The notes under the pieces: model-generated | What the model was told of the DNA's origin: nothing | Databases searched by the model: none | Seen by the model: the letters and a program-made list of their open reading frames with translations, nothing else | Assembly: GCF_037572415.1 (NCBI RefSeq) | Contig: NZ_JBBHLB010000005.1 | Coordinates: 150,050-214,049 of the forward strand | Reading direction: 5' to 3' | Length of the DNA stretch: 64,000 bases | Source of the DNA: Flavonifractor porci | GTDB taxonomy: Bacteria > Bacillota > Clostridia > Oscillospirales > Oscillospiraceae | Shown: piece by piece, positions 5,879 through 50,653 of the stretch | Numbering within the stretch: the stretch's first letter is position 1 | Layout of the letters: each line of letters opens with the position of its first letter | Made by a program: the position numbers and the translations under genes

Positions 5879-5893
5879 GGTCGTTTCTCCTTT

Positions 5894-6520
5894 TCATTGC
5901 TGTCCCCAGCCGGGCGCGGCCTCTTTGGCCGCCACACCTCGCTGTAAGATCCCCAGAATACGGATCAGCCTGGCTCTGGCCTGCTCCACACCACCATCCT
6001 GCGCTGCTGTCAGCATGGTCCCCGCTACCGCGGAGATCAGCAGATGAAACAGATCTGGCAGATCGGTCTCGCTGCGCAGATCCAGCCGGGACAGCTCGAT
6101 CTTGTCCCGCAGGCGGTCCACAATGGCGCAGGGCCCCTGTCGACTGAGGATGAGTCCCGGCTGGAGCCGCTGATTACGGCGGAGTATCCCCGCCATCTCC
6201 CGGAAGTTGTCGCTGTTCCGGTTGGCCTGCAAATAGTCAAACAGGTCCAGAAAGGCCTGAAACAAATCGCCCCCATCCCGGTCCAGCCATTCCTCCACCT
6301 GTTCCACCAACTGCTGGCCATAGGACTCCATGAGATAGTGGAACAGGTCCTCCTTATCGGTAAAGTACATATAGAAGCTGCCCCTTGGAATACCCGCATC
6401 CCGGATTATCCGGTTGATGGAGGCATCCTCATAGGGCACCCGAACAAATTCCGCCCGGGCCGCCGCCAGCAGCCGCTCCCGTTTTTCTGCCGGCAGATGG
6501 AAAAAAGTCATACTTGGCAC
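5894..6520 (-). CDS. TetR/AcrR family transcriptional regulator of the adjacent efflux operon
   Basis: N-terminal HTH (ERLLAAARAEFVRVPYEDASINRIIRDAGIPRGSFYMYF). The start is set at the GTG with a GGAGGGA RBS 6 nt upstream; the tracked ORF extends to 6544 with a TTG. Confidence 0.7.
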   Translation of the reverse strand: MPSMTFFHLPAEKRERLLAAARAEFVRVPYEDASINRIIRDAGIPRGSFYMYFTDKEDLFHYLMESYGQQLVEQVEEWLDRDGGDLFQAFLDLFDYLQANRNSDNFREMAGILRRNQRLQPGLILSRQGPCAIVDRLRDKIELSRLDLRSETDLPDLFHLLISAVAGTMLTAAQDGGVEQARARLIRILGILQRGVAAKEAAPGWGQQ

Positions 6521-6537
6521 AGTGGTTCCCTCCAGAC

Positions 6538-6592
6538 CTGACAACCTGTCGCATTATCTTAATCCGACAACCTGTCATATGTCAACAGGGCG
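6538..6592. promoter_or_regulatory. direct and inverted repeats (GACAACCTGTC twice, TGTCAACAGG) in the TetR/efflux operon promoter region, a candidate TetR operator
   Basis: Repeated 11-mer seen at ~6539 and ~6567, immediately upstream of the TetR start. Confidence 0.3.
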
Positions 6593-6726
6593 GGAACAGA
6601 ATTCACAATTTGTTCCCAACCACTTCGCTGGATAGCATAACAGACCCGTCTCAAATCTTCCATAAAAAAAGGATGAAATTTTTCTAAAAAATCACAACCG
6701 ATGGCAGCCCTTCCATTTTTCATGCA

Positions 6727-6757
6727 AAAGGGGCGCTGCACAGCAGCGCCCCTTTGA
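6727..6757. terminator. intrinsic terminator hairpin AAGGGGCGCTG-CACAG-CAGCGCCCCTT downstream of ackA
   Basis: Perfect 11-bp stem flanked by A and T runs. Confidence 0.7.
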
Positions 6758-6775
6758 AAAGATGCTTTGTTTTTC

Positions 6776-7972
6776 TTACTTGCCCACGATGGCGGCAGTA
6801 TCCATGGCGATCATAAGCTCCTCATCGGTGGGGATGAGCAGGACCTTTACCTTGGAATCGGCGGCGGAAATAACCTTCTCCTTGCCCCGGACATTGTTGG
6901 CCTCGGCGTCCATCTTTACGCCCATGAACTCCAGACCGGAAGCAGCAGCCATACGGGTGTTGGCATCGTTCTCGCCCACGCCGGCGGTGAACACGATGGC
7001 GTCCACACCGCCCATAGCGGCGGCATAGGCGCCGATGAGCTTCTTCACGCCGTACTGGAAGGCCTCCAGAGCCAGAGCAGCCTGCTGGTTTCCGTCATTG
7101 GCAGCATTTTCAACATCGCGGAAGTCGGAGGACACGCCAGAGATACCCAGCACGCCGGACTTCTTGTTGAGGACATTCATCATTTCCTTCATGTCCCAGC
7201 CATATTTGTTCATCAGGTACTCCATGATGCCGGCGTCCAGATCACCGGAGCGGGTGCCCATGGGCAGACCGGCCAGGGGGGTGAAGCCCATGGAGGTGTC
7301 CACGCTCTTGCCACAGTCCACAGCGGCCACGGAAGAGCCGTTGCCCAGGTGGCAGGTGATGATCTTCAGCTCCTCAATGGGCTTGCCCAGCATAGCGGCG
7401 GCACGCTGAGACACATAGCGGTGAGAGGTGCCGTGGAAACCATAGCGGCGGACCTTGTCTTTCTCATAGTACTCGTAGGGCAGAGCATAGATGTAGCTCT
7501 TGGCGGGCATGGTCTGATGGAAAGCGGTGTCAAACACGCCCACCATGGGCACGCCGGGCATGACCTGCTCACAGGCCTTGATACCGGTGATGTTGGCGGG
7601 GTTGTGGAGCGGGGCCAGGGGGATGCACTCCTCCAGAGCGGCCATGACCTCATCGGTGATGCGCACGGAGCCGGCGAACTTCTCGCCGCCGTGGACCACG
7701 CGGTGACCCACAGCATCGATCTCAGAGGCGCTCTTGATCACACCGTGCTCGCTGGAGAGCAGAGCGTCCAGCACAGCCTGAATGGCCTCGGCATGGGTGG
7801 GCATGGGGATCTCAAACTCATACTTGGCGTCCTTGGCGGGGACCTTGTGGGTCAGGCGGCCGTCGATGCCGATGCGCTCACACAGACCTTTGGCCAGCAC
7901 CTCTCGGGTGCCGGGGTCCATGAGCTGATACTTGAGGGAAGAGCTGCCAGCGTTGATGACCAGAACTTTCAT
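6776..7972 (-). CDS. ackA: acetate kinase
   Basis: [19 protein letters not shown]… N-terminus, with the canonical acetate kinase motifs conserved throughout. The start was chosen at the internal MKV (M27 of the tracked ORF). Confidence 0.9.
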
Positions 7973-15035: not shown

Positions 15036-15095
15036 TTATTTGATATGCAGTTCTTTTTCCACATCGTTCAGGTTGATGGTGAGCATCCGGCTGAT
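15036..15095 (-). repeat. displaced, diverged copy of the last ~57 nt of smc, including a TAA stop (encodes …ISRMLTINLNDVEKELHIK*)
   Basis: ~88% identical to 15258-15317, the true smc 3' end encoding …VSRMLTINLNDVEKELHIK*. It is separated from the true end by the 162-bp element. Confidence 0.75.
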
Positions 15096-15257
15096 CCCCC
15101 GCCCAGCCAAGGCTGGGCGGGGACCCCTTGATTTTACTCAAATCGCCGGAAATGAATCCCGGCGATTTCAAGGTTTTTCCCCAGGGCAAAACACTTGACG
15201 GCGCAAGCGCCGCCCCGCCTTCGGCGGGTGGGCGTCAGCCACCAACCCGTAAAGATA
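15096..15257 (-). repeat. copy A of a structured ~150-210 bp non-coding element family, inserted exactly at the smc stop codon
   Basis: Contains a GGGGACCCC motif preceded by a palindrome (CCCGCCCAGCC-AA-GGCTGGGCGGG), a core hairpin with an AATGAAT loop, and a GC hairpin (CGCCCCGCCTTCGGCGGGTGGGCG). It is homologous to the elements at 21860-22005, 42819-42984 and 47121-47332. Confidence 0.65.
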
Positions 15258-18200
15258 TCACTTAATGTGCAGTTCTTTCTCCACATCGTTCAGGTTGATA
15301 GTCAGCATCCGGCTGACGCCCTGCTCCTGCATGGTGACGCCATAGAGGACATCCGCTTCCTCCATGGTACCGCGGCGGTGGGTGATGACGATAAACTGAG
15401 TCTTGTCCGCCATCTGCCGCATATAGTGGGCAAAGCGCACCACGTTGGCGTCGTCCAGGGCGGCCTCGATCTCGTCCATCACTACAAAGGGAGTGGGCCG
15501 CACCTTCAGAATGGCAAAATAGAGGGCGATGGCCACGAAGGCCTTCTCGCCGCCGGACAGCAGGGAGAGCACCTTCAGCGCCTTGCCGGGGGGCTGCACC
15601 TTGATCTCGATGCCGCAGTTGAGGATATCATTGGGGTCCTCCAGCTCCAGAGTGGCCTTACCGCCCTGGAACAGCTCCGTAAAGGTCTGCTGGAAAGACT
15701 CGTTGAGCACGGCAAACTGCTTGGCAAAGATAGCGCGCATCTCCTCCGTGATATCGGCGATGATGCCCTCCAGCTCCTTTTTGGACTTCTGCACATCGTC
15801 CCGCTGGTCGGTGAGGTAGGTATAGCGCTCGTTGATACGCTGGAACTCGTCGATGGCGTCCAGGTTGATGTTGCCCAGAGAGGAAATGGACTTTTTCAGC
15901 TCTCCCACCCGGCGCTGGGCCTTGGGGACGCTCTCCAGCTCCACCCGCTGGGCCATGGCCGCCTGGTGGGACAGCTCGTAGGTCTCCCACAGCTTCTCCA
16001 GCAGGTTCTTCTCCTCCATGGCGGCGGCAGCCTTCTTCTGCTCCAGCACCGACACCTCCCGCTCCAGGTTGAGCAGGGCGCTGTTCTTGTCCCGGGCATC
16101 CTTGTCTGCCTGGTTGCGCTGGGCCTCCAGGGCCAGTTTCTCGTCGTTGATGCGGCTGATGGCGGCCTGGCGGTCCTGGTTTTCCAGTCGGATGTCCTGG
16201 AGCTGACGCTCCTTCTCCGCAATCTCCCGCTCCAGATCGGCGTTCTTCTCCTGGAACTGGGTAAGCATCCGCTCTCGCTCGGCCTTGTCGCCGGTCAGAT
16301 CCCGGCGCAGCTCTTCCAGTTCGGTCATGGACTTCCGGGCGGCCTGGGCCTCCGCCTCCAGGGCGGCCAGACGCATATTCAGTTCGGCAATGGCCTCGCC
16401 CAAAGCCGTAGCCTTCTCCTGGGCTTCGCTCTGGCCTCTGGCCTTACCCTCCGCCTCGGCCCGCAGGGCGGCGGCGGCTCCCTCCAGGGACTCCACCCGG
16501 GCGCGGGCGGCACGGGTATCCGCCTCGATCTGGGCAGAACGTGCCTGGAGCTGTTCCAGCTCACTCTTCTGGTCGGCACGCTGCTTCTTCAAATCGGCCA
16601 GCTGGGTATCCAAATGGCCCAGGCGCTCCTCCAGCTTAAGGATGTCGTCCTCATGGCGGCGCTGCTGGGCCTGAGCCGTCTCCATCTCGTAGGCGGCGGC
16701 GGTAGCCTCCCGCTTGGCCTCCTCCATGACGTGGGCCGCGTCGGCCAGCTGCTGGGCCACGCCGGTGCGCTGCTGAGCCAGCCGCTCCAACTCGTTGGCC
16801 CGGCTCAGAATGCCCGCGCTGCGGGACGCCGAACCGCCGGTCATGGAACCGCCGGGGTTGAGCACCTGGCCGTCCAGAGTGACGATCTTAAAGCGGTAGT
16901 TGTATTTGCGGGCCATGGCAATGGCCTTGTCCATATCCTCGGCCACCACGGTGCGGCCCAGCAGGTTGGAAAAGATCTTCTCATACCGGGGATCGAACTG
17001 GATGAGTTCGTTGCCCAGGCCTACAAAGCCGGGTTCCCTGCGCACGCCCTGATCCCGGAAGTCGGAGGGCCGCATGGAGGTCACGGGCAGGAAGGTGCTC
17101 CGGCCGCCGTCCCGGCGCTTCAGGTACTGAATGGCGGCCTTGCCGTCCTCCTCCCGCTCCACCACAATATGCTGCATGGCGCCCCCCAGGGCGATCTCGA
17201 TGGCTACCGTACAGGCGTCAGGCACATGGATGAGTCCGGCTACCGGGCCGTGGATGCCCCGAAGCTGGCCCTTCTTGGCCTCCCCCATCACCAGCTTTAC
17301 CGCTTTGGAGTAGCCCTCATACATCTTTTCCATCTCGGAGAGCATATGGATGCGGGAGTTCAGGGCGTTGTCCTCCATCTGGAGTTTGACGTGGCGCTCC
17401 TCCGCTTCCCTGGCCTTCCGCTGCCGGGTCTCCAGCCGCAGGGCGTAACCGCTGATGATGTTCTGTAAGCTGTCCCGGTCCTCCCTGGCCTGGTCCAGCT
17501 CCTGGGCGGCCTGACGGCGGGTCTCCTCCGCCTCATGGAGCCGCTCCTCACCGGAAGCCAGCTCCTGACGCATGGCCTCGTCCCGGTCCAACACCTCCTG
17601 GGCGGCAGCGGCCAGGGCGGAAATGAGGGCCTTGGCGTCGGCGGCGGAGGCGTTCTCCACCGCCTCCTTCCGGCGCAGGTCCTCCAGCTCCTGGGCAATG
17701 GCCCCGGCGGAGCGGCTGGCGGAGGCAGCCTCATTCTGGCGGTCAGCCAGCTGCTGCCGCAGGCCGGCGGTCTGGCCTTCCAGCTCCTCCAGCCGGGTCT
17801 TGCGCTCCCCGATCTGGGCGGCGATGGAGTCAGCCCGGCCCTCCTGCTGCTCCAGCTCCCGCTGGATGCGGTCCCGGTTCTCCAGGTTGTTCTGAATATT
17901 GGTTTTGAGGACGGCGATAGCGTTTTCCAGGCTGTTGGCATCGGCCTCCCGCTGCATCATTTGGAAGCGGACGCCCTCGGTCTCCACGTCCTTGTCCCGC
18001 ATCTGAGCGGAGAATGCCTCAGCGGCGGCGTACAGGTCCTCCACCTGCTGCTGGACCTCCCCCTTCTGACGGAGGGCATTCTCGTAGTCGGACAGGGTCT
18101 TGCGGGACCCGGAACGAATCTTCTCCAGCTGGTCCAGCCACAGGGAAATCTCCAGCCCACGCAGCTCGTCCCGCAGGATGAGGAACTTCCTGGCCTTCTC

Positions 18201-21209: not shown

Positions 21210-21461
21210 TTACCGCCCCTGCTGCCCGTCTGTCAGGGGACGGGGTTCGTCAATCAGGCCCAGCAGATAATCCGCCGACACATTGTAATGCTCACACAGC
21301 TGGGCCAGTTTGGCAAAGGTTGACGCTTTCCGTCCATTTTCCATTTCACCGATCTGATTTGGTTTGATCCCCAGCAATTCTGCCAGCTCCTGCTGAGTCT
21401 CGCCCCGCAGTTTTCGCAGTTCCTTCAACCGTATGCCAAATAACTCGTTGGAGTACACCAA
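21210..21461 (-). CDS. XRE-family helix-turn-helix transcriptional regulator
   Basis: HTH segment QQELAELLGIKPNQIGEMENGRKASTFAKLAQL. The start is TTG/GTG with a GGGGGGA RBS. Confidence 0.6.
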   Translation of the reverse strand: MVYSNELFGIRLKELRKLRGETQQELAELLGIKPNQIGEMENGRKASTFAKLAQLCEHYNVSADYLLGLIDEPRPLTDGQQGR

Positions 21462-21476
21462 ATCCCCCCTTGACGA

Positions 21477-21520
21477 CCCCCACTAATAGCGTGTATAATA
21501 AATACACGCTATTAGTGGGG
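21477..21520. promoter_or_regulatory. perfect 19-bp inverted repeat CCCCACTAATAGCGTGTAT-AATAA-ATACACGCTATTAGTGGGG filling the divergent intergenic region, a probable operator
   Basis: The palindrome occupies essentially the whole gap between the XRE start and the divergent small ORF. Confidence 0.55.
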
Positions 21521-21527
21521 TTGTGAT

Positions 21528-21767
21528 ATGAACCTTTTGATTTCCGACCTGTTCTCCCTGTCTCAGGAGCATTTCCCCGCCGTCCCCGACGCTGAGGACT
21601 CCTCCCGCCAGCGGCTGCTGTCCCGGCATCTGGATGCCGTCAGGGGCAGTCTGGGGGAGGATTTTGTGGACAAGCTACGGGACCTCACGGATGAGCAGGG
21701 CCTGCGGGATCAGGAGGCCGCCTTTCTCCAGGGCCTGAGGCTGGGCCTCTCCCTCCACCGTCTGTAG
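21528..21767 (+). CDS. hypothetical small acidic protein (79 aa) divergent from the XRE regulator
   Basis: Open frame with a terminator hairpin immediately after its stop. No recognisable domain. Confidence 0.35.
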   Translation: MNLLISDLFSLSQEHFPAVPDAEDSSRQRLLSRHLDAVRGSLGEDFVDKLRDLTDEQGLRDQEAAFLQGLRLGLSLHRL

Positions 21768-21789
21768 GGGCCGATGCCCTCATCGGCCC
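21767..21789. terminator. hairpin GGCCGATG-CCCT-CATCGGCC, the ancestral bidirectional terminator
   Basis: Stem-loop directly after the 21528..21767 stop and directly after the displaced trmFO 3' copy. Confidence 0.5.
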
Positions 21790-21859
21790 TCCACATCCAG
21801 TCCCGCCAGCGCTTCCAAGGCTCGCTTACTCAATTCAGCGTTCTTGTTCCGCTTGTTCC
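21790..21859 (-). repeat. displaced, diverged copy of the last ~70 nt of trmFO (encodes …NKRNKNAELSKRALEALAGLDVEGR*)
   Basis: ~85% identical to 22006-22078, the true end encoding …KGKRNKNAELSKRALEMLAGLDVE*. Most differences are synonymous. Confidence 0.75.
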
Positions 21860-22005
21860 CCACGGAAATCATATTTCCGTGGGAGCCCCGATCCTTAAAT
21901 CTGCTCGGGCGAAGTGAATTCGCCCGGCATCAAGATTTTGCTTCGCAAAATACTTGGCGCCGCACGGCGGCGGGTCGCTTTCGCTCCCGGGCAAGCGGAC
22001 GCGCC
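21860..22005 (-). repeat. copy B of the structured element family, inserted exactly at the trmFO stop codon
   Basis: Contains the palindrome CCCACGGAAAT-CAT-ATTTCCGTGGG, then GAGCCCC, a core hairpin CGGGCGAA-GTGAA-TTCGCCCG, an ATTTTGC-TTC-GCAAAAT hairpin, and a GC-rich proximal hairpin. Confidence 0.65.
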
Positions 22006-23310
22006 TTATTCTACATCCAGTCCCGCCAGCATTTCCAGAGCCCGCTTACTCAATTCGGCATTCTTATTCCGCTTGCCCTTGACCTTATAGCCCAGAGGCG
22101 GGATGATGCCGAAATTCACGTTCATGGGCTGGAAATCGGTAACGCTCTCATTGCTGATATACAGAGCCAGCGCGCCGGTGGCGGTCTCCTGAGGGAAATC
22201 CACCGGCGGCTTGCCGGTGAGCCGCCGGGCCAGCTCCACCGCCGCCAGGAAGCCGGAGGCGGTGGACTCCACATAGCCCTCCACGCCGGTGATCTGCCCG
22301 GCAAAGCAGATACGCGGGTCCTTCTTCACCCGGTAATACCGGTCCAGCAGCCGGGGAGAATCCAGATAGGTGTTGCGGTGCATGACGCCGTAGCGGACAA
22401 ACTCCGCGTTTTTCAGGGCGGGGATCATGGAAAACACCCGCTTCTGCTCCGGCCACTTCAGGTGGGTCTGGAAGCCCACCAGATTGTAGATGGTGCCGTC
22501 AGCGTTATCCCGCCGCAGCTGCACCACAGCGAAGGGCTCCTTGCCGGTCTTGGGGTCCCGCAGACCACGGGGCTTCAGTGGCCCGTAGCACAGGGTCTGC
22601 TTGCCCCGGCGGGCCATGACCTCCACCGGCATACAGCCCTCAAACACATTCTTGTCCTCAAAACCGTGGACCTCCGCCTCCTGGGCGGCACACAGCTCGG
22701 TCCAGAATGCGTCGTACTCCTCCTCGGTCATGGGGCAGTTGATGTAGTCCGGAGTGCCCTTGTCGTAGCGGGAGGCAAAGAAGGCGCTCTCCATGTCCAC
22801 GCTCTCAAAGGTGACCAGAGGGGCGGCGGCGTCAAAGAAGTTGAGGTAGTGGCTCTCCGGGAAGAAATCCTTAATGGCATCCGCCAGCACGTCGGAGGTC
22901 AGGGGCCCGGAGGCCACAATCACGTTGCCCTCTTCGGGAATCCGGGTGACTTCCTCCTCCACCACTGTGATGAGGGGATGATTGCGGATCTTCTCGGTGA
23001 TGGCCTGAGCAAAGCCGTGGCGGTCCACCGCCAGGGCGCCGCCGGCCTCCACCCTGTGCTCGTCGGCGCAGGACAGGATGAGGGAACCCATCCGCCGCAG
23101 CTCCTCCTTCAGCAGGCCCACCGCGTTCTCCAGCTGGTCGGAGCGCAGGGAGTTGGAGCACACCAGCTCGCCGAACCACTGGGTGTGGTGGGCGGGGGTC
23201 ATTTTGTGGGGCTTCATTTCCTTCAGGATCACGGGGATGCCCCGCCGGGCCAGCTGCCACGCAGCCTCACACCCGGCCAGACCCGCGCCGATCACGCGTA
23301 CAGGTTCCAT
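22006..23310 (-). CDS. trmFO: methylenetetrahydrofolate--tRNA-(uracil54-C5)-methyltransferase TrmFO (Gid)
   Basis: MEPVRVIGAGLAGCEAAWQLA… FAD-binding N-terminus and the TrmFO core. Confidence 0.9.
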   Translation of the reverse strand: MEPVRVIGAGLAGCEAAWQLARRGIPVILKEMKPHKMTPAHHTQWFGELVCSNSLRSDQLENAVGLLKEELRRMGSLILSCADEHRVEAGGALAVDRHGFAQAITEKIRNHPLITVVEEEVTRIPEEGNVIVASGPLTSDVLADAIKDFFPESHYLNFFDAAAPLVTFESVDMESAFFASRYDKGTPDYINCPMTEEEYDAFWTELCAAQEAEVHGFEDKNVFEGCMPVEVMARRGKQTLCYGPLKPRGLRDPKTGKEPFAVVQLRRDNADGTIYNLVGFQTHLKWPEQKRVFSMIPALKNAEFVRYGVMHRNTYLDSPRLLDRYYRVKKDPRICFAGQITGVEGYVESTASGFLAAVELARRLTGKPPVDFPQETATGALALYISNESVTDFQPMNVNFGIIPPLGYKVKGKRNKNAELSKRALEMLAGLDVE

Positions 23311-23359: not shown

Positions 23360-25676
23360 ATTCCGCTTTCTGTTTGGCGGCAGGCTTCCTGGCCGCCGTC
23401 TTTTTTGTTGTGGTCTTTTTGGCGGCGGCAGTCTTTTTGGCGGCCGTCGTCTTCTTGGTGGCGGTCTTTTTCGCCGCCGTCTTCTTGGCGGGCTTCTTCT
23501 CCTCCTCGGGGGGAGCGCCCTCCGCAGGAGTCTCCGTGGCGGCGGTGGTCTTTTTCTTATAGCCCCGCTGGTCCTCGGGCAGGAAGTTGGGGCACTCGGG
23601 GTTGATGCAGAAGGGCTTCTTGAACCCACGGCCCGACTTCTTAAACAGGGTATGGCCGCACTCGGGACAGTTGTCCTTCACAGGTACATCCCAGGTCATA
23701 AAGTCGCAGCGGCGGGCCTCATCCTTATTGGAGTTGTTCTCGCAGCCATAATAGGCATAGCCCCGCTTGGAGGTCTTTTTCAGAATCTTGCCGCCGCACT
23801 TGGGGCACTTGCCCGGCATCTCGATGACGATGGGCTGGGTGTGGTCGCACTCCGGCCAGCCGGGACAGGCCAGGAACCTGCCAAACCTGCCGGATTTATA
23901 TACCAGATTGCGGCCGCACTTGGGACAGATCACGTCGGACACCTCGTCGGGCACCTTGATGCGCTCGCCGTCCAGGTCCTGCTCTGCCTGCTTCAGTTCC
24001 TTCTCAAAGCCGCCGTAGAACTGGCTCAGCAGACTCTTCCAGTCCACCTTGCCGGTCTCCACCTCGTCCAGCTGCTCCTCCATGTTGGCGGTGAAGGCGG
24101 TATCCACAATATCGGTGAATTTGTCCTTCATCAGGCCGGTGACCACCTCGCCCAGAGGGGTGGGCCGCAGGTTTTTGCCCTCCTTCACCACATACTCCCG
24201 GTCCAGGATGGTGGAGATGGTGGGGGCGTAGGTGGAGGGGCGTCCGATGCCCTTCTCCTCCAGGGCCTTGATGAGGGTGGCCTCGGTGTAGCGGCTGGGG
24301 GGCTGGGTGAAGTGCTGGTCAGGGGTTAACCCCTTCAGCTCCAGGGGCTCCCCCTCCTTCAGGTCAGGCAGGGGGGACTGGAAAGTCTCGTCCTCCTCGT
24401 CCTTGCCCTCCACGTACACGGCAGTGTAGCCGGAGAACTTGAGGGAGGAGTGGGTGGCCCGGAAGGTATAGCCGGCGGACTCCACCTCGATGGACACGCT
24501 GTCATAGATGGCGGAAGCCATCTGGCAGGCCAGAAAGCGGCTCCAAATCAATTTATAGAGCTTGTACTGCTCGGCGGTGAGGGACTTTTTGATGTCCTCC
24601 GGAGTGAGGGCCACGTTGGAGGGCCGGATGGCCTCGTGGGCGTCCTGGGCCCCCGACTTGGTCTTGTACACCCGGGGCTTGCCGGGGTAGTACTGCTCCC
24701 CGTAACGGGACAGGATGAAATCCCGGGCGGCGGCGGTAGCCTCGTCGGACAGACGGAGGGAATCGGTACGCATATAGGTGATGAGACCCACGGTACCCTC
24801 GCCCTCAATGTCCACGCCTTCATAGAGCTGCTGGGCGATGGACATGGTGCGCCGGGGGGTCATGTTCAGCTTGCGGCTGGCCTCCTGCTGGAGGGTAGAG
24901 GTGATGAAGGGGGGCGCCGGGTTGCGCTGCTTGTCCTGGCGCTTGACGCTCTTCACAGAGAAGGGGGCAGCCTGGACGGCCAGGGCCACTTCCTGAACGG
25001 CCTGTTCGCTGTTCAGTTCCATCTTCTTCTCTCTGCCGTAGAAGCTGGCCTTGAACTGCCCCAGATTGGGGGAGATACGGGCCAGATCGGCCTCCAGGGA
25101 CCAGTATTCCTGAGGCACGAAGGCCTTGATGTCTGCCTCCCGCTCACACACCAGCCTGGTGGCCACCGACTGTACCCGGCCGGCGGACAGGCCCCGGCGG
25201 ATCTTTTTCCACAGCAGGGGGGAGATCTGATAGCCCACGATGCGGTCCAGCACCCTTCTCGCCTGCTGGGCATTGACCAGGTCCATGTCGATGGCACGGG
25301 GGTGGGCGATGGAGTCATTGACCACCTTCTTGGTGATCTCGTTGAAGGTCACCCGGTAGGTCTTGTCGTCAGGAATCCCCAGCATCTCCTTCAGATGCCA
25401 GGAGATGGCCTCTCCTTCCCGGTCAGGGTCGGTGGCCAGAAATACTTTATCGCTCTTCTTGGCGGCCTTGGTCAGGTCGTCGATGACCTCTTCCTTGCCC
25501 TTGATGGGCTGATAGTCCACCGTGAAGTCGTTGTCCACATCCACGCCCAGCTTGCTTTTGGGCAGGTCCCGGACATGGCCCATGGAGGCCTTCACCTGAT
25601 AGCCGGGCCCCAGATATTTGCCAATGGTCTTGGCCTTCGCCGGGGACTCGACGATCACCAGATTCGATTTCGCCAC
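23355..25676 (-). CDS. topA: DNA topoisomerase I with C-terminal zinc ribbons and a lysine/alanine-rich basic tail
   Basis: TOPRIM N-terminus (MAKSNLVIVESPAKAKTIGKYL), multiple CxxC…CxxC zinc fingers, and a C-terminal KKTAAKKTATKK repeat tail. Confidence 0.95.
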   Translation of the reverse strand: MAKSNLVIVESPAKAKTIGKYLGPGYQVKASMGHVRDLPKSKLGVDVDNDFTVDYQPIKGKEEVIDDLTKAAKKSDKVFLATDPDREGEAISWHLKEMLGIPDDKTYRVTFNEITKKVVNDSIAHPRAIDMDLVNAQQARRVLDRIVGYQISPLLWKKIRRGLSAGRVQSVATRLVCEREADIKAFVPQEYWSLEADLARISPNLGQFKASFYGREKKMELNSEQAVQEVALAVQAAPFSVKSVKRQDKQRNPAPPFITSTLQQEASRKLNMTPRRTMSIAQQLYEGVDIEGEGTVGLITYMRTDSLRLSDEATAAARDFILSRYGEQYYPGKPRVYKTKSGAQDAHEAIRPSNVALTPEDIKKSLTAEQYKLYKLIWSRFLACQMASAIYDSVSIEVESAGYTFRATHSSLKFSGYTAVYVEGKDEEDETFQSPLPDLKEGEPLELKGLTPDQHFTQPPSRYTEATLIKALEEKGIGRPSTYAPTISTILDREYVVKEGKNLRPTPLGEVVTGLMKDKFTDIVDTAFTANMEEQLDEVETGKVDWKSLLSQFYGGFEKELKQAEQDLDGERIKVPDEVSDVICPKCGRNLVYKSGRFGRFLACPGWPECDHTQPIVIEMPGKCPKCGGKILKKTSKRGYAYYGCENNSNKDEARRCDFMTWDVPVKDNCPECGHTLFKKSGRGFKKPFCINPECPNFLPEDQRGYKKKTTAATETPAEGAPPEEEKKPAKKTAAKKTATKKTTAAKKTAAAKKTTTKKTAARKPAAKQKAES

Positions 25677-32608: not shown

Positions 32609-35600
32609 TTACTCCGCTTTGCTATCCGCAAAGCGCATGAGGATGGTAGCGACCTCAACGCGGGTGGCGGTGCCGGTGGGATCCAGCTTGCCGCCGTCCT
32701 TGCCGGACAGCAGGCCGGAGCCTACCGCCCACTCCATGGCCTCAGCGGCCCAGGAGGAGGTGTTGGCGCCGTCGGCGAAGGTGGTCAGATCGCCCTTGGC
32801 GGACACATCGTAGCCCTTGCTCTCAGCGTAGCGGTACAGGATGGTGGCCAGCTGCTCCCGGGTCACGGTGTCGTTGGGGGCAAACACGGTGTCGCTGTAG
32901 CCCTTGACGATACCCTTGGAGGCGGCCCAGTTCACAGCGTCGGTGTACCACACACCGCTCTCCACATCGGTGAAGGACAAGGTGGCCTCAGCCTTGGGCT
33001 GGCCCTCCAGCCGCCACAGGATGGTGACGATCATGGCACGGTTGGTGATCATGAGGGGAGCGAAGGTAGTGGAGGATGTGCCGTCCATCAGCTTATTATC
33101 GCAGACGTACTTCACGGCCTCATAGAACCACTCGTCGGCCTTCACGTCGGTGAAGGGCGTGTCGGTATCCACGGGGGTATCGTCCTTGACAAATGCTGCT
33201 TTCACGGTGACGGCGGAAGCAGGCATGGCGAAGGTGTACTTTCCGTCGCCCTTGTCGGTGAGCTTGACCTCGCTGCCGTTCTTGTCGGTGACGGTGATGG
33301 TATCCAGCTTGTAGCCCTCGTCAGACTTCACAGTCAAGGTGATGGTGAGACCCTTGGAGGCGCGGGTGCGGCTGGACGTCACAGTGCCATTGTCCGTCTC
33401 GTCCACGGTGATGGCGTAGGAGGTAGAGGGAACACCACCGGAACCATTATCCTCCCACTTGGCGTACAGGGTCATGCTCTCGTTTACAGGATCGCTGAAA
33501 TTCCACTGGGTGGTATATATATTGTCGGTATACCAGCCTGCAAACACATAGCCCTCGCGAACAGGTGCCTCAGGTTCGGCCACAGTGCTGCCGACCTCGA
33601 CCGTCTGTTCAGGTACACTGCTTCCGCCGTTGCTTTCAAAGGTCACCGTAACCGTCTTGGGCGCATTGGGGTCGATGGCATCGGCCCGGATCAGCACCTC
33701 CGCATTGATGTTGGAGATGGTGACATTACCAGTGACAGCGTCGTAAGTATACCCCTTGCCCTGTTCAAGGGCAGTGCCGCCCATGGTCACGGAAATGGTC
33801 TCAGGCAGGATATAGCCCTCGGCGGGAACCAACTTGAAGGTAAGGTCGGTCCCATCCATCACACTGTCTGTCTTGGGGTCCACACTGGCATTGTACAGGA
33901 TGTATTCGATATGGTGCATCACAGCAGTCTCAGTCTTAAAGGTGCAGGATGCGGGCTGCGACTCGTTGCCGCTTCTGTCGTAGGCGGTAACCGTTACCGT
34001 ATACTCTGCGTTGGGAGTCAGGCCGGAGAAGGCGTAGGTGCTGGCCGTGATATCGGCCACCGGGTCAGACGCTCCGTTCAGATAGACACGATAACCGGCC
34101 AGGTCGGCCTCCGCGGAGGGCGTCCAGGTGACCGTGGCGCCGGTCTGCGTGACTCCGGAAGCGGCCAGTCCGGCGGGCGCCGCAGGAGCCGTGGTATCGG
34201 GCCGCTCCACAGTGATGGTCACACCAAGGTCATTCACTGCGTCCAGGGTGCCGTGAATGGTCTGGGCAGCTTCGCTCTCGGCGGCATAATCGCTTTCCGT
34301 CCAGGCCACATTGCATACCACAAAGGTACTGTCGCTCATCTCGACCACAGCCCGAGTGGGCAGACCGAGCTCGGCAAAAGCGGTGCCCTGCTGTGCCGTG
34401 ACAGAAGCCGGGTTCACGGCTGCGGAGACAGCCTTGGGTTCTTCCGTCAGCGTAAGGTGCAGTTCTGCCTTCACACCATCCGTGTTGGTCACGGGGTCCT
34501 GACACTGAAGCGTACCGGTCAGAGTCTGCTCCGCGCTGTTGGAATTATATCCCTCGTCGCTCCAGGTCACATTCAGGGTGATCGAAGTGCCGTCAGCCAG
34601 AGTTGCGGCTACCGTCTCAGGCAGATTCAGATCGCCAAAGGCTGTTCCAAGAACGCCTGTGGCAGTGGCAGGTTTGACCGATTCCACGTTAGGCTCCGCA
34701 GGCGCCACAAACCGGGTACCGGTAACGGTAACTTCTTTCAGGCCGATGCAGGTACTTTCTCTAGGTATAACACTATTGCCCTTCTCAAAATAGAGCCGGA
34801 GATAACGGGTGCCCGCAGGAATGGGCTTTGTAAAGTCCGCCTTGGCCACGCTGTGGGTAGCGCCAGATTCCGTTCCCGACTGCGTCACAGTGGCAATGGT
34901 AGTCCAGGCATTGGCATCCTTTGCGTTTTGGCCGGTGAGAGCCTCTTTATTATTCATAGTCTGATAGAGGTTCTCTTTGCTGTAGTCCTGGGGCGTATAG
35001 TCGCTGCCCGCAACCTGAATCCAATATTCATCGGACCAGGTCTTATTAAAGTAGGACATGGAGATCCCGGTGACATCAGCCACATCTTCCCCAAGATCGA
35101 TCACGATCCAGGCGCCGTTGGAATCTGTCGCCACTTCGGGACCCACCCAGTTGCTGCTCCACCGAGTGCCGGTATCGCCGTCCACACTCTTGCTGGGTTC
35201 AAATCCAGAACTCAGTTCCATACCGGAGGCATAGACGGGGTGCTCCAGAGAAAGATTCTCTTCCGCTCCAACGCCGGCCGAATAAGTCTTGGTACCATTG
35301 ATTTTCAGTTCAGCCACACTGATGCCAGTGGCGCCGGTGGCATACTTGTTGATCTCATTAAACACTACGCACACATACCGACCACTGGTGCCCTCAGGCA
35401 GTACAGTTACCTGATCGTCGTGACCTTTTTGATCGGTAGGATCATAGGACGCGCTGGCAGCCTTTGTACCGCCGCTTACCTTGCCGTCTTGTACCGTAAA
35501 GGGCTCGTCGGAGACGTAGATATCATATTTGGTGGGCCAGGATTTATCTGTGTAGCATTTCAGCGTAATATCGGTAAGCTCATTGGTGCCGCTCAGATCT

Positions 35601-38600
35601 TCTCCGTCTTTGCCGGTGTTCAGATCCACGATGATCCACTCCACGCCCGGAGTCTGAGGCGCATCCACGCTGCCGGTCTCCTTGATGGCAGGACCCGCGC
35701 ACCACCGGTTGCTGGGATCGCCGTCCAGGGCCTTCCAGGACTGAGGATCGTCCGAAGATCCGGAAACACCAGATGCCTGATGGGCCTTATTCAGCGCCAG
35801 ATTACCGGCAAAAGGCTCCTGAGGGGTGGAACTGTCCCGCCGCACAGCGACCACGGCAGTCAGAGCAAAGCCACCGGGATTGGTGATGGTATCGCCCAGG
35901 ACATAGTTGCCCGTTACGGTGTATTCCTTGGCAGCGGTAGGATCATAATCTTCCCCGGACCAGACAACAGGAAGGGTAACCTCTTTGCCGTTGCTCAGGG
36001 TCACAGTACCCTGCGCAGGCAAGCCGGCCCGATCCAATTCGGTGCCAAAGGCCACTTCCACTTCGATTTCCGGATTGGGAGCGGTGTAAATGCTGGGCAG
36101 CGGGAGGGGTGCCTTACCGGCTTCGCCCTCGTCCAGACGTCCGTTGAGCAGGATCTCCGCAATGCTGACATTGCTGCCGGCCGCCCAGGCCACTTTAATC
36201 GCGGAGATATCGCCCAGCTGGGAAGTATCGCCTACCCAGACGGTATTGTCTGCCGTTCCAACAGTCTCCCAGTTATCGCCCACCTTCACGGTCACGCTGG
36301 CATTGGAGACAGAATTCTGAATCACACTGACCGAATCCAGATGGACCGGCTTCTTCAGAGTATAGACCAGCTCGCCGGCAGCACTGCTGTTAAAAGCGGT
36401 CAGCAGATTGCCGTCCATTGCGTTTTGTTCATTTGCGGCGCCGCTGGTAAAGGTTCCGGCAGAGGTGTCTACGGTAAATTCCCGAACGTTGAGCTTGCTG
36501 CTGGAATCTTCTGTCTGGCGCAGCCGCAGGTAGCGGGCACGAATGGCAAGATCAGACAGGGTGATATGAGTGGAATCTACCTCAGGAACCAGGGTAATCC
36601 ACTGGATTCCATCCTGAGAATACTCCAGAGTGGCGTTATGATAATAGTTGCTGTCCTCATCCTTTTCGCCCTGAAGGATAGAAACGCCGCGCACGGTCTT
36701 TTCGATGCCCAAATCCACGCCGTAATAGTCATTGGCCTGCTGCGCAACATCGTACTTGGCGGCGCTGCCGGCATTTCCATCCAGCATTGCGTTGGAAGCG
36801 GTGGCCTCCTGGCGGACCCCGCCGATCACCGCATAGAGGGTGGGCTCGGTATGAGATACCTGCGGGCTCAGCTCTTCAAAAATGCGGGTGGATACACCTT
36901 CCATCAGATCCGTAATGAACGGCTGCAGCCGCTTGGAGCCGCCATAAGTGTTAAGGCTCTTCTTTTCGGTATTGGCAGCATTGTACTGGGCCCAGGCCTC
37001 AGCCAGATTGTCGCTGTTGACCGCAACAGCCGCCTGAAGAGCGGGCTGGATCGCCTGAGCGACTTTTTCCAGATTGCTGAGCCAGGGATTCAATTCACCG
37101 ATCAGTTGAGCGCTGGTGCAGTGTTCCTTAAAATATGCGATCGCTTCCACAATGTGCTGGCATTCATCCCGCAGCTTCACAAAGTCCGGATCCTCAGCGG
37201 TCAGGGTCCCGTTTTTCGTCTTTTCCAGAACTGCCGCCATGGTGTCCTTCAGATAATCAGACTCAGGGAAGGGATTTCTGCCAGGGAAACGGCTGGGCAC
37301 GTTGGAACCAACTGCTGCGCCCACATTCCGGGCAATGGTGAGATAGGCGTCATACACCTCGGGCTGGAGGTACTTGAAGCAATCTTCCCAGATGTCCAGA
37401 TAATTCTCGTCATAGCTTTCATTGTTCCAGTTCCAGCACATCAGCTGGTAGATACCCACCTTACTGACCTGGGGCTTATTGCAGGGGTTTGAGATAATGC
37501 CCAGGTGATGTTTCAGTCCTTTTGCCCATTGCAGATAGGCCTGGCTGTCACCCAGGAAAATGCCCCGGCCACCGGTATGTTCGTTACAGGGATAGTTCAG
37601 CCAGGTTACGATGTCATGTCCGCTGCGATCATACGCATAGTCGTAATTCTTCTGCTCCACGGGAGAATTTACCGTAGCGCCCGTCCAGTAGATTGGAATA
37701 CGGGAGTCCAGATTTTTAAACGATGCCAGCTCCTCGCCGTTGTCTGTCTCCGCACGACCGACATTATAATGCTGCGGGCAGTACACAATGGTTGCACAAT
37801 CACCCTTTTTATCCACATAATCGGTCATGATCCGGTTCAGCAGATTTACCGCATCGGCATGGGTGCCGGAACCGAAATCGTCGTTCAGGATGTGGAATTG
37901 GCGCACACCAATCGCATAGAACTGGTCAAGCTTTTTGGTGAGCAGATCAAAGCGTCTGTTATACTCCGCATAGCCCGCTTCATTACTGGGATCGGTGCTT
38001 ACGCCGCCTTTAAAAAAGCTGCCCAGATGAACAGACCAGACAAATTCCACTTTGGTTTCTTTTCCGACTTCGACAAGCCGTTTAAAGTCCTTCATCTGAT
38101 CCTCTGGATAGAGTTTGTCCCAATCAGAAGTATGATACTTGTCCGTTTTGGACGCATAGACAAAGATGTTCATTTTGACATCCCGCCCCATGCGCATCAC
38201 GCTTTCCCGGTTTTCAACATCCCAGCCGCCATAGAAGCCTTCTATCACACCGCGGTACAGGTTGTTGGAATAGTCCTCGATCTCCACCGGCAGGAACTTC
38301 TGACCGGCAAAGGAGCTGAACATCATCTGCAGGGTGGCCAGACCGTAGTAAACACAGTCTGTATCCTTACCCACGATGGTAACCACTCCGTTGGCGTTGT
38401 TGGTGGTATCTGCCACCAACATATAGGGATCATACTTCCCCATACCGGTACTGTCGCTGTCGTCGAACAGGTCCGTACGAGCGGTGGGAACAGGGTCTGC
38501 AACAGTCTTGTCCTCGTCCCCGTAGACGCCCAACAGGATGTTGGTCTTCCCGGCCACCACCGCACTGGAGGTAGTCATGGTCATGTCATAATCGGCCAGG

Positions 38601-38893: not shown

Positions 38894-39307
38894 ATCTCCT
38901 TTTTAAAAATCGGACCTACTTCCGGCAGGATTGCGTTTACGCCTGCGGATTGGTATCATATCCACCCCTTATTTCTCCCGCCTTTGGCACTCCGGGTCTT
39001 AAAATCTTCGTTCATAACCTCCTTCTTATTTTTCGACACAATAGTCTATATTTAGTTTATCACGGTACCCTACAGCCGCAAGTATGATTTTTTATCATAC
39101 TTTTACTCAGTACAGAACTTTTTTTCAAGGGTATCAAAACTTTAAAACTATTTTAATGAAATTGCTTTCCCATAGTTTTATAGTCGGCATCCATATTCTT
39201 ACCTTAATTGGCCAACCTCTCCCTTGCTTTATACAGCCAGCCTGCGCCTTTCCTTCTTTTCACGCATATCATGTTGCGGGAGCATCTCCCAGAAGGGGGT
39301 AACACGC

Positions 39308-40681: not shown

Positions 40682-40789
40682 CCCAACTCCCACTGTTTTG
40701 TTTTCACAGCACAGGATCTCTGCTGCAAAACGTTGATCTGCTCTCTTCGCAGGCAATGTCCCCAGTGCAGCATACAAAATAAACAAAAC

Positions 40790-40846
40790 GCAGCTACCGC
40801 AAACAGGCAAGCGCCTGATTTCGCGGTAGCTGCTGTTTTTGCCCGA
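40790..40846 (+). terminator. intrinsic terminator GCAGCTACCGC…GCGGTAGCTGC followed by TGTTTTTG
   Basis: 11-bp stem plus a T run downstream of the vWA gene. Confidence 0.6.
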
Positions 40847-41044
40847 TAAAGGCGGCTGTAACGGCATGAGATAGGAGCTTCTCAAACGTGTGCGGCGGAC
40901 ACGTAAGGTACAGCGTACAAAGCAAATTTTCACGATACCCTATGCAGCCAGGATATTGTATTGACCGCAGGGCGCTATTAAGATTATTGTGTTGGATTAG
41001 CTTCCTAATTGCAGCAAAAACGGGCGGGTTTCCCCGCCCTTCAA

Positions 41045-41263
41045 TTAGCTTTCATCGTCTTTGATATATTTCATAATATCGCCCACTTCGCAGTCCAGAA
41101 TACGACAAAACACCTCTATGGTATGGGTACTGACACTTTCGTTGCGCTTCAACCTTGTAATCTGTGCCGGGCTGATATTGTATTTCTTTATGAGGGCATA
41201 TTGGGAAATCCCTTTTTCCCGCATGACATTCCATAAGTTGTCGTAAGAAATCATAACATTCAA
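41045..41263 (-). CDS. XRE-family HTH transcriptional regulator (72 aa)
   Basis: HTH (GISQYALIKKYNISPAQITRLKRNES). AT-rich, with a terminator hairpin GGGCGGG-GAAAC-CCCGCCC downstream. Confidence 0.6.
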   Translation of the reverse strand: MNVMISYDNLWNVMREKGISQYALIKKYNISPAQITRLKRNESVSTHTIEVFCRILDCEVGDIMKYIKDDES

Positions 41264-41353
41264 GCCTCGCTCTCTACTTGAATGTTAACCGAAAACGATG
41301 TACAATTAGATTAACCAATATCGGTTAATATATTTATGTAGGAGGAGACGGAA

Positions 41354-42352: not shown

Positions 42353-42415
42353 GCACAAAAAGAGAGGGCGGTACACCATCAGTGCCGTCCTCTCTCATTT
42401 TGTATTCCATTGTTA

Positions 42416-42826
42416 TCAAGCGCTCTCCTGCTCCTTCTTCTCTTCCTGCTTCTTCTGGAAGCCAGCAAGATCAATCACCTTGGAAGCATTGGAACTAAAA
42501 TCGGGCTGCTCCTTGTACTTTGGGAACTGGGTCTCAAACCAATTCCGCACAAACTTGTAGGGGATGGGCTGCTCCAGGGAGCAGGTCTTGACCACCTCAG
42601 ACTGGGCCAACAGCTCACCAGCATTCTGAAACACGCCCATATACTTCTCCATGTTTGCGCAAGTCAGGTTCTTGTAGGTGCGTTTGCTGGCATTTTTCTT
42701 GATGGTCTTGGTCGCTATCTGAGTACTGGGGAAGTCCTGGCGGTAAGCTCTCCACTCTCTGTATTCAGGAGGGCCGAAGATACGGGTCTGCTTCTTGAAA
42801 GCCTTGCCGTGGTGGGCAATCCCCAT
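42416..42826 (-). CDS. hypothetical ORF whose first codons derive from the displaced rubrerythrin 3'-end copy; it may be real or spurious
   Basis: Starts MGIAHHGKAF…, corresponding to rubrerythrin …[15 protein letters not shown]. Lys/Glu-rich C-terminus. Low-GC region. Confidence 0.2.
   Translation of the reverse strand: MGIAHHGKAFKKQTRIFGPPEYREWRAYRQDFPSTQIATKTIKKNASKRTYKNLTCANMEKYMGVFQNAGELLAQSEVVKTCSLEQPIPYKFVRNWFETQFPKYKEQPDFSSNASKVIDLAGFQKKQEEKKEQESA
42770..42818 (-). repeat. displaced, degenerated copy of the rubrerythrin 3' end (stop lost, one codon deleted)
   Basis: GAAAGCCTTGCCGTGGTGGGC…TTCAAGAAGCAGACCCGTATCTTCGGCCCT aligns with rbr 42985-43040, GAAAGCCTTGCCGTGGCGGGC…TTCGAGGGCCTGCTGAAGCGTTACTTCGGCTAA. 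Confidence 0.6.
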
Positions 42827-42984
42827 GGGACAAATCCCATGGGGACCCCAATGATTTCATCTGCTCGGGCGGAGTGAATCCGCCCGGCTTCGAGGTTTCA
42901 GCTTCGCCAAAACCCTCGGTGACGAGGCCCGCCACGGCAAAAAAGATCCCGGTCCGTTGGACCGGGATCTTTTAGGTATTCAGA
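42819..42984 (-). repeat. copy D of the structured element family, inserted exactly at the rubrerythrin stop codon, with its own strong terminator
   Basis: CCCATGGG-ACAAAT-CCCATGGGG palindrome, then ACCCCAATGATTTCAT, core hairpin CGGGCGGA-GTGAA-TCCGCCCG, and the terminator AGATCCCGGTCC-GTTG-GACCGGGATCT with A/T flanks at 42944-42970. Confidence 0.7.
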
Positions 42985-43527
42985 TTAGCCGAAGTAACGC
43001 TTCAGCAGGCCCTCGAAAGCCTTGCCGTGGCGGGCCTCGTCGCGAGCCATCTCGTGGACGGTGTCGTGGATGGCGTCCAGGTTGTGCTCCTTGGCCAGCT
43101 TGGCCAGCTCGAACTTGCCGGCGGTAGCGCCGTTCTCGGCGTCCACACGCATCTCCAGGTTCTTCTTGGTGGAATCGGTCAGAACCTCACCCAGCAGCTC
43201 GGCAAACTTGGCGGCGTGCTCGGCCTCCTCCAGAGCGGCCTTCTCCCAGTACAGGCCGATCTCGGGGTAGCCCTCACGATGAGCCACACGGCTCATGGCC
43301 AGATACATACCGACCTCGGAGCACTCGCCCTCAAAGTTCATGCGCAGGCCCTGGATGATCTCCTCGGGAGCGCCCTTGGCAACACCGACAACGTGCTCAG
43401 CAGCCCAGGTACGATCGCCACCCTGGAGCACGAACTTCTCCTTGGGAGCCTTACAGATGGGGCAGAAATCAGGGGCGGAATCCCCCTCGTGAACATAACC
43501 GCAAACAGAGCAGACCCACTTTTTCAT
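42985..43527 (-). CDS. rbr: reverse rubrerythrin (N-terminal rubredoxin-like domain plus C-terminal ferritin-like diiron domain)
   Basis: [28 protein letters not shown] (CxxC…CxxC rubredoxin fold) followed by diiron ExxH motifs ([23 protein letters not shown]). Confidence 0.85.
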
Positions 43528-43832: not shown

Positions 43833-43854
43833 CGAGATCCATTTCCTTATCCCC

Positions 43855-45509: not shown

Positions 45510-47120
<1,611 letters not shown>

Positions 47121-47332
47121 GCAACGCCCCCTTATGCTGACTTTCCAAGGAGGGACGCGGCAGCGCCGCGTCCCTCCTTTTTCGTCGGCCACCGGGGCCC
47201 CATCAAAGATGGGGCGGCGCGCAAGCGCCGTACAAGCGTTTTACCGGCAGGCAAAACCTTAATGCCGGGCGGATTCATTCCGCCCGAGCAGCTCCAATCA
47301 TGGGGTCCCCAACCTGCCCCGCAGGTTGGGGC
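47121..47332 (+). repeat. copy C of the structured element family, inserted exactly after the gdhA stop, with its own intrinsic terminator
   Basis: Terminator GGAGGGACGCGGC-AGC-GCCGCGTCCCTCC plus TTTTT at 47149-47182. Core hairpin CCGGGCGGATTCATTCCGCCCG. CAATCATGGGGTCCCC followed by the palindrome AACCTGCCCCGCAGGTTGGGGC. This is the same orientation relative to the host gene as copies A, B and D. Confidence 0.7.
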
Positions 47333-47370
47333 TGGCCGACGCTATGATCTGGCAGGGCGTGTCCTACTAA
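47333..47370 (+). repeat. displaced, identical copy of the last 38 nt of gdhA including TAA (TGGCCGACGCTATGATCTGGCAGGGCGTGTCCTACTAA)
   Basis: Exact repeat of 47083-47120. It is followed by the ancestral gdhA terminator. Confidence 0.8.
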
Positions 47371-50650: not shown

Positions 50651-50653
50651 AAT

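Follow-up and report, generated by a model that had tools for sequence, protein, structure and literature searches.

Twin gene ends around a structured, non-coding element behind trmFO and other housekeeping genes in Flavonifractor porci and related Oscillospiraceae

In Flavonifractor porci contig NZ_JBBHLB010000005.1, a stretch of 64,000 nucleotides (hereafter the window) carries the gene trmFO, followed by a hairpin-rich, non-coding element and, behind it, by a second copy of the gene's own 3' end (Table 1). The upstream copy of the gene end is called U, the element E, and the downstream copy D. TrmFO terminates in ...KGKRNKNAELSKRALEMLAGLDVE (...LAGLDVE, then TAA). D begins at 21855 (CAAGCGG...), reads ...KRNKNAELSKRALEALAGLDVEGR and stops with the TGA at 21780-21782. 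A repeat search of the window aligned 21790-21855 with 22010-22075, 66 nt without gaps and 86% identical. Together with the sequence and the list of open reading frames (ORFs), this bears out the displaced trmFO end that a first-pass annotation had placed behind an intervening element. The element itself is present as described; its length is 150 nt, including a 2-nt AA spacer, and not 146. The order had also been given correctly: stop codon, GC-rich hairpins, core hairpin, GGGGCTCCC, the palindrome CCCACGGAAAT-AT-GATTTCCGTGGG and the displaced end. In gene orientation, E opens with a linker containing the hairpin CGCTTGC..GGGAGCG, after which the hairpins hp0 to hp3 follow. At the hairpin that encloses the native TGA, a terminator scan predicted none.

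Table 1. Features of the trmFO end and of the other element copies in the window.
Feature	Coordinates	Strand	Basis or details
trmFO coding sequence, 434 aa	22006..23310	-	ORF list; TAA 22006-22008; homologues named TrmFO, with PF01134
U, upstream, resident, translated gene-end copy, 66 nt	22010..22075	-	repeat search and codon comparison
E, element, 150 nt including AA spacer 21856-21857 (148 + 2)	21856..22005	-	sequence; profile match; fold; covariation
E, hp0	21959-21971		
E, hp1	21931-21956		
E, hp2 (core)	21903-21928		
E, GGGG of the 3' part	21886-21889		
E, hp3 (variable palindrome)	21859-21883		plus G at 21858
D, downstream, displaced gene-end copy: 66-nt repeat + GGC CGA TGA	21780..21855	-	sequence; empty-site allele L002 ends alike
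Native hairpin GGCCGATGAGGGCATCGGCC enclosing native TGA	21769..21788	-	sequence; no T-run; also 3' of trmFO in L002, L003
smc-end copy	15037..15324	-	U 15262-15324, stop 15258-15260, E ~15103-15257, D 15040-15102, TAA 15037-15039
rbr-end copy	42760..42987	-	stop 42985-42987, gene's own terminator, E 42821-42933, decayed D remnant ~42760-42817
gdhA-end copy	47083..47370	+	U 47083-47120 including stop; terminator and long-form E 47121-47332; D 47333-47370

Compared in frame, U and D of trmFO differ by seven synonymous codon changes and a single non-synonymous one (ATG to GCG, M to A), with 2/1/6 differences at codon positions 1/2/3. Over a wider 78 nt, which take in the edges and the stop, nine synonymous and four non-synonymous codon changes are counted, so the earlier estimate of about 12 differences, about nine of them synonymous, was roughly right. 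Related genomes were compared through about 117 fetched loci, designated here by L-numbers. The junction GGGGAA/CAAGCGG between E and D recurs in the independent assemblies L001, L069, L076 and L120/L121, and the arrangement is therefore not an assembly artefact. In L115, D starts with CAAGCGG as in the window, and the 2-nt spacer differs (GGGGCA).

The same architecture, as previously proposed, is found at the ends of smc, gdhA and rbr. A hidden Markov model built from the four window copies recovers exactly these four in the window; a search with nhmmer matches the trmFO copy at 21858-21967 (E=7e-28). At gdhA, D is a 38-nt sequence 100% identical to U and is followed by a different terminator; in the orthologous copies L036/L038, D of smc is longer than in the window, by 43 nt. 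With four copies in the window and 162 matches overall, the alternative of a one-off rearrangement can be set aside.

Which of the two gene ends is the original one was checked against trmFO of relatives. L002, whose TrmFO is 92% identical, carries no element: its gene ends in ...LDVEGR-TGA within the same hairpin, and the two small genes that follow it are those found there in the window too. A functional trmFO thus ends with the two codons that had been taken for a run-on caused by displacement, and this detail of the annotation is lost. In L076, D (...ILDKLDPAEL-stop) and its flank match the element-free allele L124/P0082; in L115, D (...VLGALDV-stop) shows no difference from the element-free allele L126/P0034, nor do the ~60 nt that follow it. 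The tails of U in the element-bearing lineages are of one type (LAGLDVE, LAGLDAE or LAALDIE before the stop), and those of D are lineage-specific. The U tail of L115, LDGLDWQ, resembles the native LDGLDWR of another lineage, L128. Since the D tails match element-free alleles and the U tails are of one type, D is, judged from these alignments, each lineage's own native gene end, and U tail, stop and element behave as a cassette common to several lineages. For trmFO of the window, D is the original end, and the segment 21856-22075, with U, the TAA and E, the cassette. The idea that the native end was displaced and that a new end came with the element is thereby supported at trmFO, both by the U tail types and by the element-free relatives, whose functional end corresponds to D and its flank in three lineages.

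The resemblance between the twin ends follows a regular pattern. Over the coding part of 76 copies, U and D differ by 203 synonymous and 39 non-synonymous codon changes, and the differences at codon positions 1/2/3 are 32/25/209 (209 of 266 in third position). Identity between U and D within a genome reaches 0.946, against 0.875 for U-U and 0.869 for D-D between genomes, and the within-genome value exceeds the U-U identity in 101 of 113 pairs. For smc, species-specific variants of L036 and L038, one of them non-synonymous, are common to the U and D of the same genome. That the twins of one genome are closer than orthologues across genomes, and that they share the smc variants, shows concerted evolution of U and D within each genome. 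The synonymous bias is family-wide, and concerted evolution with allelic recombination explains it, not a one-time delivery of the new end.

The geometry, with a gene 3' end, a GC-rich hairpin region and a second copy, recalls the variable repeat and template repeat of a diversity-generating retroelement, and a pair of this kind, or any programmed switching of the C-terminus, was considered. The mismatch spectrum is symmetric, with 69% transitions, and adenines are not favored (73 vs. 80 mismatches at A), the changes are synonymous, the hosts are housekeeping genes, and the neighborhoods contain no reverse transcriptase. The spectrum already refutes this explanation, and its probability is practically nil.

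The stop codon usually marks, to within 1-2 nt, the end of the homology between U and D. The best-preserved copies differ from this: their repeats are 98-100% identical and span the 3' untranslated region (3'UTR) and the terminator up to the element, with 99 nt at 99% at rbr of L077, 107 nt at 98% at gdhA of L025 and 38 nt at gdhA of the window. Such copies look like a duplication of the target itself. The pattern is read as an original duplication extending into the UTR, of which conversion and selection keep only the coding part alignable, the tails decaying or being swapped. Erosion of D is visible at several stages: it is shortened at smc of the window, a remnant at rbr of the window, and absent altogether at some loci. 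In L003 (4306-4440), the trmFO element has suffered an internal deletion with loss of the core, and its first ~70 nt are fused, TTTTGCG to GAACAAGAAC, to a decayed D.

The core pattern of the element, CCGGGCGRATTCAYTYCGCCCGAG, matches at least 116 genome stretches. Among the matches listed, essentially all belong to Oscillospiraceae (Flavonifractor, Pseudoflavonifractor, Intestinimonas, Lawsonibacter, Galloscillospira and Oscillibacter); two matching contigs sit in an 'Anaerovibrio' bin. Flavonifractor plautii ATCC 29863 and Pseudoflavonifractor capillosus ATCC 29799 are among the carriers (L046, L033, L049, L106). The 162 nhmmer matches were obtained in those loci, and in 93 of them a flanking direct repeat starts 2-5 nt after the last GGGG. 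This repeat measures 26-133 bp (median 72). About 36 different host genes are concerned, each with its own end duplicated. A coding ORF on the same strand ends at most 200 nt upstream in 91 of 130 copies, and an opposing ORF is faced in 22 of 130. The sign of the GC skew is constant across the window, yet the gdhA copy lies on the plus strand and the other three on the minus strand; orientation therefore follows the gene, and an orientation set by replication was rejected on this one case (n=1). The number of copies per genome is presumably high, given the four in this 64-kb window.

The ten commonest of 233 clusters of neighboring ORFs are all housekeeping by Pfam (alaS, gdhA, rbr, trmFO, opp, comEC and others), and none of these ten is a transposase, reverse transcriptase, integrase, recombinase or HUH gene adjoining the copies. 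No autonomous partner was thus found there, and no autonomous insertion sequence with the same ends was seen among the ORFs lying up to 2.5 kb from the copies in the ~117 loci. A viral or plasmid origin was rejected, the core pattern having 0 matches in viral contigs.

These data bear on the possibility, implied by the first-pass annotation, that the gene end is itself part of the mobile unit, either as an attP-like recombinase site or through one-ended or rolling-circle capture. At trmFO, the U tail is inherited together with the element, and the fixed right and variable left ends resemble one-ended transposition. Against this, some 36 genes each carry a duplicate of their own end, so the gene end is not a cargo of the element's transposition; the repeat lengths vary, the duplication in the best-preserved copies takes in the locus's own UTR and terminator, and neither an adjacent recombinase or HUH gene nor a viral or plasmid-like context is seen (no match in viral contigs). 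We consider this origin very improbable. As a whole, the interpretation given in the annotation is partly supported.

Several variants of the element deserve description. Relatives located beside RNase P RNA (L009, L012) and tRNA genes (L027, L008, L043, L057) keep the hp2 core, lack GGGGYCCCC-hp3 and abut the 3' ends of the RNA genes convergently; some possess a hairpin of A-tract, stem and T-tract that could be a bidirectional terminator. L030 (4250-4820) contains at least four tandem units, each ~125-130 nt, of an hp2-containing relative, with no host-gene segment between them. Head-to-tail arrays of a 96-nt unit plus element occur in L050 (~5750-7000), L014, L087 and L033. The 96-nt unit contains a complete mini-gene, a GGAG followed by a 19-codon ORF (MQVKCKIRDRTHRLSAAEG and stop), with the arms of a long inverted repeat on either side, GGCGACAGACAGG...CCTGTCTGACGCC.

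The element is ~110-150 nt long, has no ORF and lies in the 3'UTR, just behind the stop codon or the terminator, in the sense of the gene. At the 3' side it has a precise end (GGGGYCCCC, a hairpin whose sequence varies, GGGG), and at the 5' side a variable one, with optional modules: a unit of GGGGCCCC, hairpin and GGGG, the CGCTTGC/GCRAGCG hairpin, and hp0 (CGCSnnnSGCG). Then follow hp1, CAAGCGTTTTGCC...GGCAAAACCTTG, and the almost invariant hp2, GCCGGGCGGATTCAYTCCGCCCGAGC, which is followed by AGATAAAA. The near-invariance of this core hairpin across genera points to a protein or RNA partner. On 38 distinct copies, RNAalifold recovers hp1, hp2 and hp3, with compensatory double changes in 19 of 33 pairs. 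The stem of hp3 is a perfect 9-11 bp in 47 of 49 copies, and its sequence is locus-specific. Its pairs include 26 G·T vs. 2 A·C, and one pair alternates between A-U (18 copies) and G-U (16 copies). This excess and this alternation indicate that the strand under structural selection is the gene-sense strand, as RNA in the 3'UTR or possibly as single-stranded DNA. The trmFO copy folds as RNA at -73.3 kcal/mol (z = -4.2).

No terminal inverted repeats were detected: between the first 30 nt and the reverse complement of the last 30 nt of 49 copies, the mean local score is 5.06, vs. 5.43 for shuffled sequences. Rfam gave 0 matches in the window at gathering score, only chance-level matches at E<=10 on 21700-22150, and nothing on the related loci except RNase P RNA, tRNA and THF. 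ARAGORN called 0 genes, i.e., nothing tRNA-like. The core sequence appears in no paper of the searched literature, and keyword searches gave nothing matching. With no Rfam family, no literature match and the defining features of no known repeat class, the element family is apparently undescribed.

Some possible functions of hp3 were discarded. As a guide to the target it was rejected, the longest exact match to its own locus being 6.68 nt and to mismatched loci 6.60 nt. A derivation of hp3 or of the junction filler from the target upstream of the repeat was dismissed too, as inspection by eye showed no resemblance and no enrichment was found. The 3' arm of hp3 (21858-21883 in the window, and at other loci) usually ends in RTGGGG, which provides an ATG/GTG/TTG start. 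Translation of D from this start was dropped as a candidate: it is in frame in 17 of 35 distinct loci, trmFO and rbr among them, and the excess is weak.

Exchange between alleles is best seen at trmFO. Between the element-bearing L115 and the element-free L126, identity is 100% at 1.1-1.3 kb upstream, falls to 74-97% over the stretch that reaches the cassette, and is back at 97-100% once D begins. This jump in identity at D places the end of a recombination tract inside the repeat, and these comparisons show that the two kinds of alleles were interconverted by homologous recombination, with one crossover in the repeat. L076 and L124 differ essentially only by a 217-nt segment, U plus E, as expected either after a precise U×D excision or after a gain of minimal size.

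Between trmFO and plsX, a two-gene module is observed in the window (21210-21767) and in L002, L003, L124 and L126. It consists of an ORF of 77-86 aa (DUF6809 in L126), convergent with trmFO, and of an HTH_3/HTH_31 protein. The module is independent of the element: the window and L003 have both, L001 and L120 the element only, and L002 the module only. To the right of the element, the sole homology available across all these trmFO backgrounds is D. At gdhA and at trmFO of the window, sliding identity was uninformative about a recent import tract, as either the conservation of the genes or the distance of the relatives was too great. L006 was tried as evidence that E and D move together and was withdrawn, since it proved to carry an AT-rich island (1-3018) inserted just upstream of the rbr-associated element, which it separates from rbr. 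The island encodes a 744-aa protein that we take, by eye, to be a helix-turn-helix and dynamin-like GTPase protein.

The whole probably reflects a target-duplicating insertion, after which the coding repeats drive gene conversion, excision and cassette transfer by homologous recombination. A primary insertion would have duplicated its target, from a G-rich coding site as far as the stop or terminator or past it. U and D evolve in concert within each genome, D keeping the native tail and downstream flank, and the U tail, stop and element forming the cassette. Element-bearing and element-free alleles interconvert, as they have done at L115/L126, the duplicated coding segment serving as a portable right-hand homology arm; with such an arm, recombination between U and D may also excise the element. 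Finally, D would be repeatedly exchanged with functional sequence, which would explain why its differences from U are mostly synonymous.

The primary insertion left several clues. Upstream of U, G occupies position -2 in 32 and position -3 in 30 of 52 loci, matching the terminal GGGG, and the E/D junction contains an A-rich filler of 1-4 nt. Each locus has one founding junction. In the best-preserved copies, the insertion point lies directly after the terminator, and head-to-tail arrays of repeat plus element exist. These clues fit template switching on an RNA template and also a transposase with long staggered cuts.

The first of these possibilities is an RNA-mediated insertion, in which the element RNA would be reverse-transcribed from its fixed 3' end and the enzyme would switch to the 3' end of the host mRNA, copying its last 30-130 nt; the chimeric cDNA would integrate by homology, giving U as the cDNA copy, then E, then D as the original DNA. 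It would account for an orientation that tracks transcription and not replication, for the precise 3' and variable 5' ends (the optional 5' modules look like 5' truncation), for U ending 1-12 nt past the terminator T-tract, where the mRNA ends (rbr, gdhA, L072), for the A-rich filler and G microhomology at the E/D junction, for the folding of the sense strand indicated by G·U pairs, and for the arrays. However, neither a reverse transcriptase nor a group II intron was found near any copy, Rfam returns no intron or retron, the junctions lack A-tails, and the single founding junction per locus makes the events rare and old. Moreover, all these features also fit DNA transposition with selection, and RNA-mediated insertion seems unlikely. 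A related, equally doubtful possibility is a retroelement like the short interspersed elements, combining RNA-templated insertion via the host mRNA 3' end with portable homology arms that home into any allele. If this were true, the cassette would home by ordinary recombination whatever lies downstream, and excision would reactivate the silent D, adding C-terminal diversity; the GR-stop end of L002 may be an example.

The second possibility, slightly less unlikely, is the transposition of a non-autonomous DNA element by a trans-acting transposase with long, variable staggered cuts, as in IS1634 and IS1549, followed by vertical descent; element-free alleles would arise only by U×D excision, and no cassette would spread horizontally. 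Long, variable direct repeats are documented for these two (8-514 bp; PMC2266710). One junction common to all species at each locus, orthologous elements diverging with their hosts, and the bare U plus E difference between L076 and L124, which precise excision predicts, agree with it. The absence of terminal inverted repeats (5.1 vs. 5.4 shuffled) and of a nearby transposase does not, and the strict co-orientation with genes is left unexplained. Vertical descent also conflicts with L115, whose U tail is like that of the L128 lineage and whose D tail is the one present in its own close relative, and with the divergent tract abutting the cassette between L115 and L126. A tandem duplication by slippage explains arrays such as L086 and was rejected as the general origin of the repeat-element-repeat arrangement, because a D contiguous with the native stop and flank would need a second, exact deletion.

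Several points weigh against the favored reading, a target-duplicating insertion with later recombination. Among the neighboring ORFs examined, no transposase, reverse transcriptase or integrase lies beside any copy, and no insertion was seen to arise de novo. Between species, many compensatory changes separate orthologous elements, so much of the distribution is old and vertical. Element-free alleles could be excision products and not naive sites, and the event at L115/L126 is a gain of the cassette or its loss by import of an element-free allele. Conversion with neutral decay of D predicts ~50% of differences in third position, whereas 79% are observed; indirect selection or frequent allelic import must be assumed for this share.

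Among known systems, REP/BIME, ERIC, RUP and Correia-type repeats, which resemble MITEs (miniature inverted-repeat transposable elements), share with the element a high copy number, a size of 100-150 nt, a non-coding, hairpin-rich nature, an intergenic or 3'UTR position and orthologous copies persisting across species. Unlike them, the element lacks terminal inverted repeats, is strictly co-oriented with the upstream gene, and conserves the structure of its terminal hairpin and not the sequence; its duplication involves 26-133 bp of coding sequence, vs. 0-9 bp. The GTAG/CTAC tag of REP/REPIN is present in 2 of 49 copies only, the multi-hairpin unit of 110-150 nt is not a 20-40 nt palindrome, and no IS200-like gene of the kind expected for RAYT adjoins the copies. 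Neither the terminal inverted repeats of MITEs nor their short target duplications of fixed length were found. As for diversity-generating retroelements, neither adenine-confined differences nor a neighborhood reverse transcriptase is seen.

Group IIC introns are comparable in sense orientation and in the position of the best-preserved copies, directly after the terminator T-tract. The element, on the contrary, has no ribozyme domains and no Rfam match and is only 110-150 nt long; group II introns are not known to duplicate their target. In integrative elements at gene 3' ends (phages, integrative and conjugative elements, islands), the functional end likewise derives from incoming DNA, the native end is displaced, and the differences are allele-like. 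Those elements are kilobases long and use a dedicated integrase and one fixed att site; the element, without ORF, has no integrase in it or adjacent to it and no single att core, involves the own ends of ~36 genes and is apparently transferred by general homologous recombination. A mobile ORF or homing-endonuclease gene at the 3' end of the mitochondrial atp6 of Allomyces, associated with Paquin et al. 1994, reportedly brings a foreign C-terminal segment. Such fungal mitochondrial mobile ORFs are alike in the insertion upstream of the native stop, the intact foreign C-terminus and the native end left as a pseudo-copy; they encode a homing endonuclease, whereas the element encodes nothing and has no linked nuclease. 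For duplications tied to mitochondrial homing-endonuclease genes, no citation was found in PMC4162613.

IS1634 and IS1549 are the only bacterial transposable elements documented here with long, variable target duplications like those of the element (8-514 bp; the mechanism is not known, PMC2266710). They are elements of 1.5-2 kb with a DDE transposase, inverted-repeat ends and no reported preference for gene ends or orientation. The element shares the long, variable repeats (26-133 bp), has neither transposase nor inverted repeats, and occupies a fixed position behind stop codons or terminators.

Other features of the window were noted in passing. Two diverged segment copies (55956-56709, 73-77% identical, spaced 468 nt) inside the ORF 55626-56747 have the look of a domain duplicated within the protein. 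At the 3' end of topA, a short-period repeat (23369-23501) encodes a C-terminal tail rich in lysine, alanine and threonine (KKTAA...). Stretches at 36000-46000 and 50000-54000 have a G+C content of 0.50-0.52, vs. ~0.60 elsewhere, include a 2097-aa ORF at 32609-38902 and may be acquired regions.

If the description holds, the 3'UTRs of core genes harbor a structured and unannotated element in common Oscillospiraceae of the human and chicken gut. The hosts include smc, trmFO, gdhA, rbr, alaS and rnc, and a further one presumably ends in a secA-type SEC-C motif, assigned by eye. The pseudo-copies of gene ends would be misread by gene callers, single-nucleotide polymorphism callers and recombination scans, and gene conversion, precise excision and allele replacement would have natural substrates in the repeats. 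The element would join the very few systems in bacteria whose target duplications are long and variable, a phenomenon without known mechanism (PMC2266710). It would also make it practicable to study a duplication in which the silent copy goes on evolving like coding sequence.

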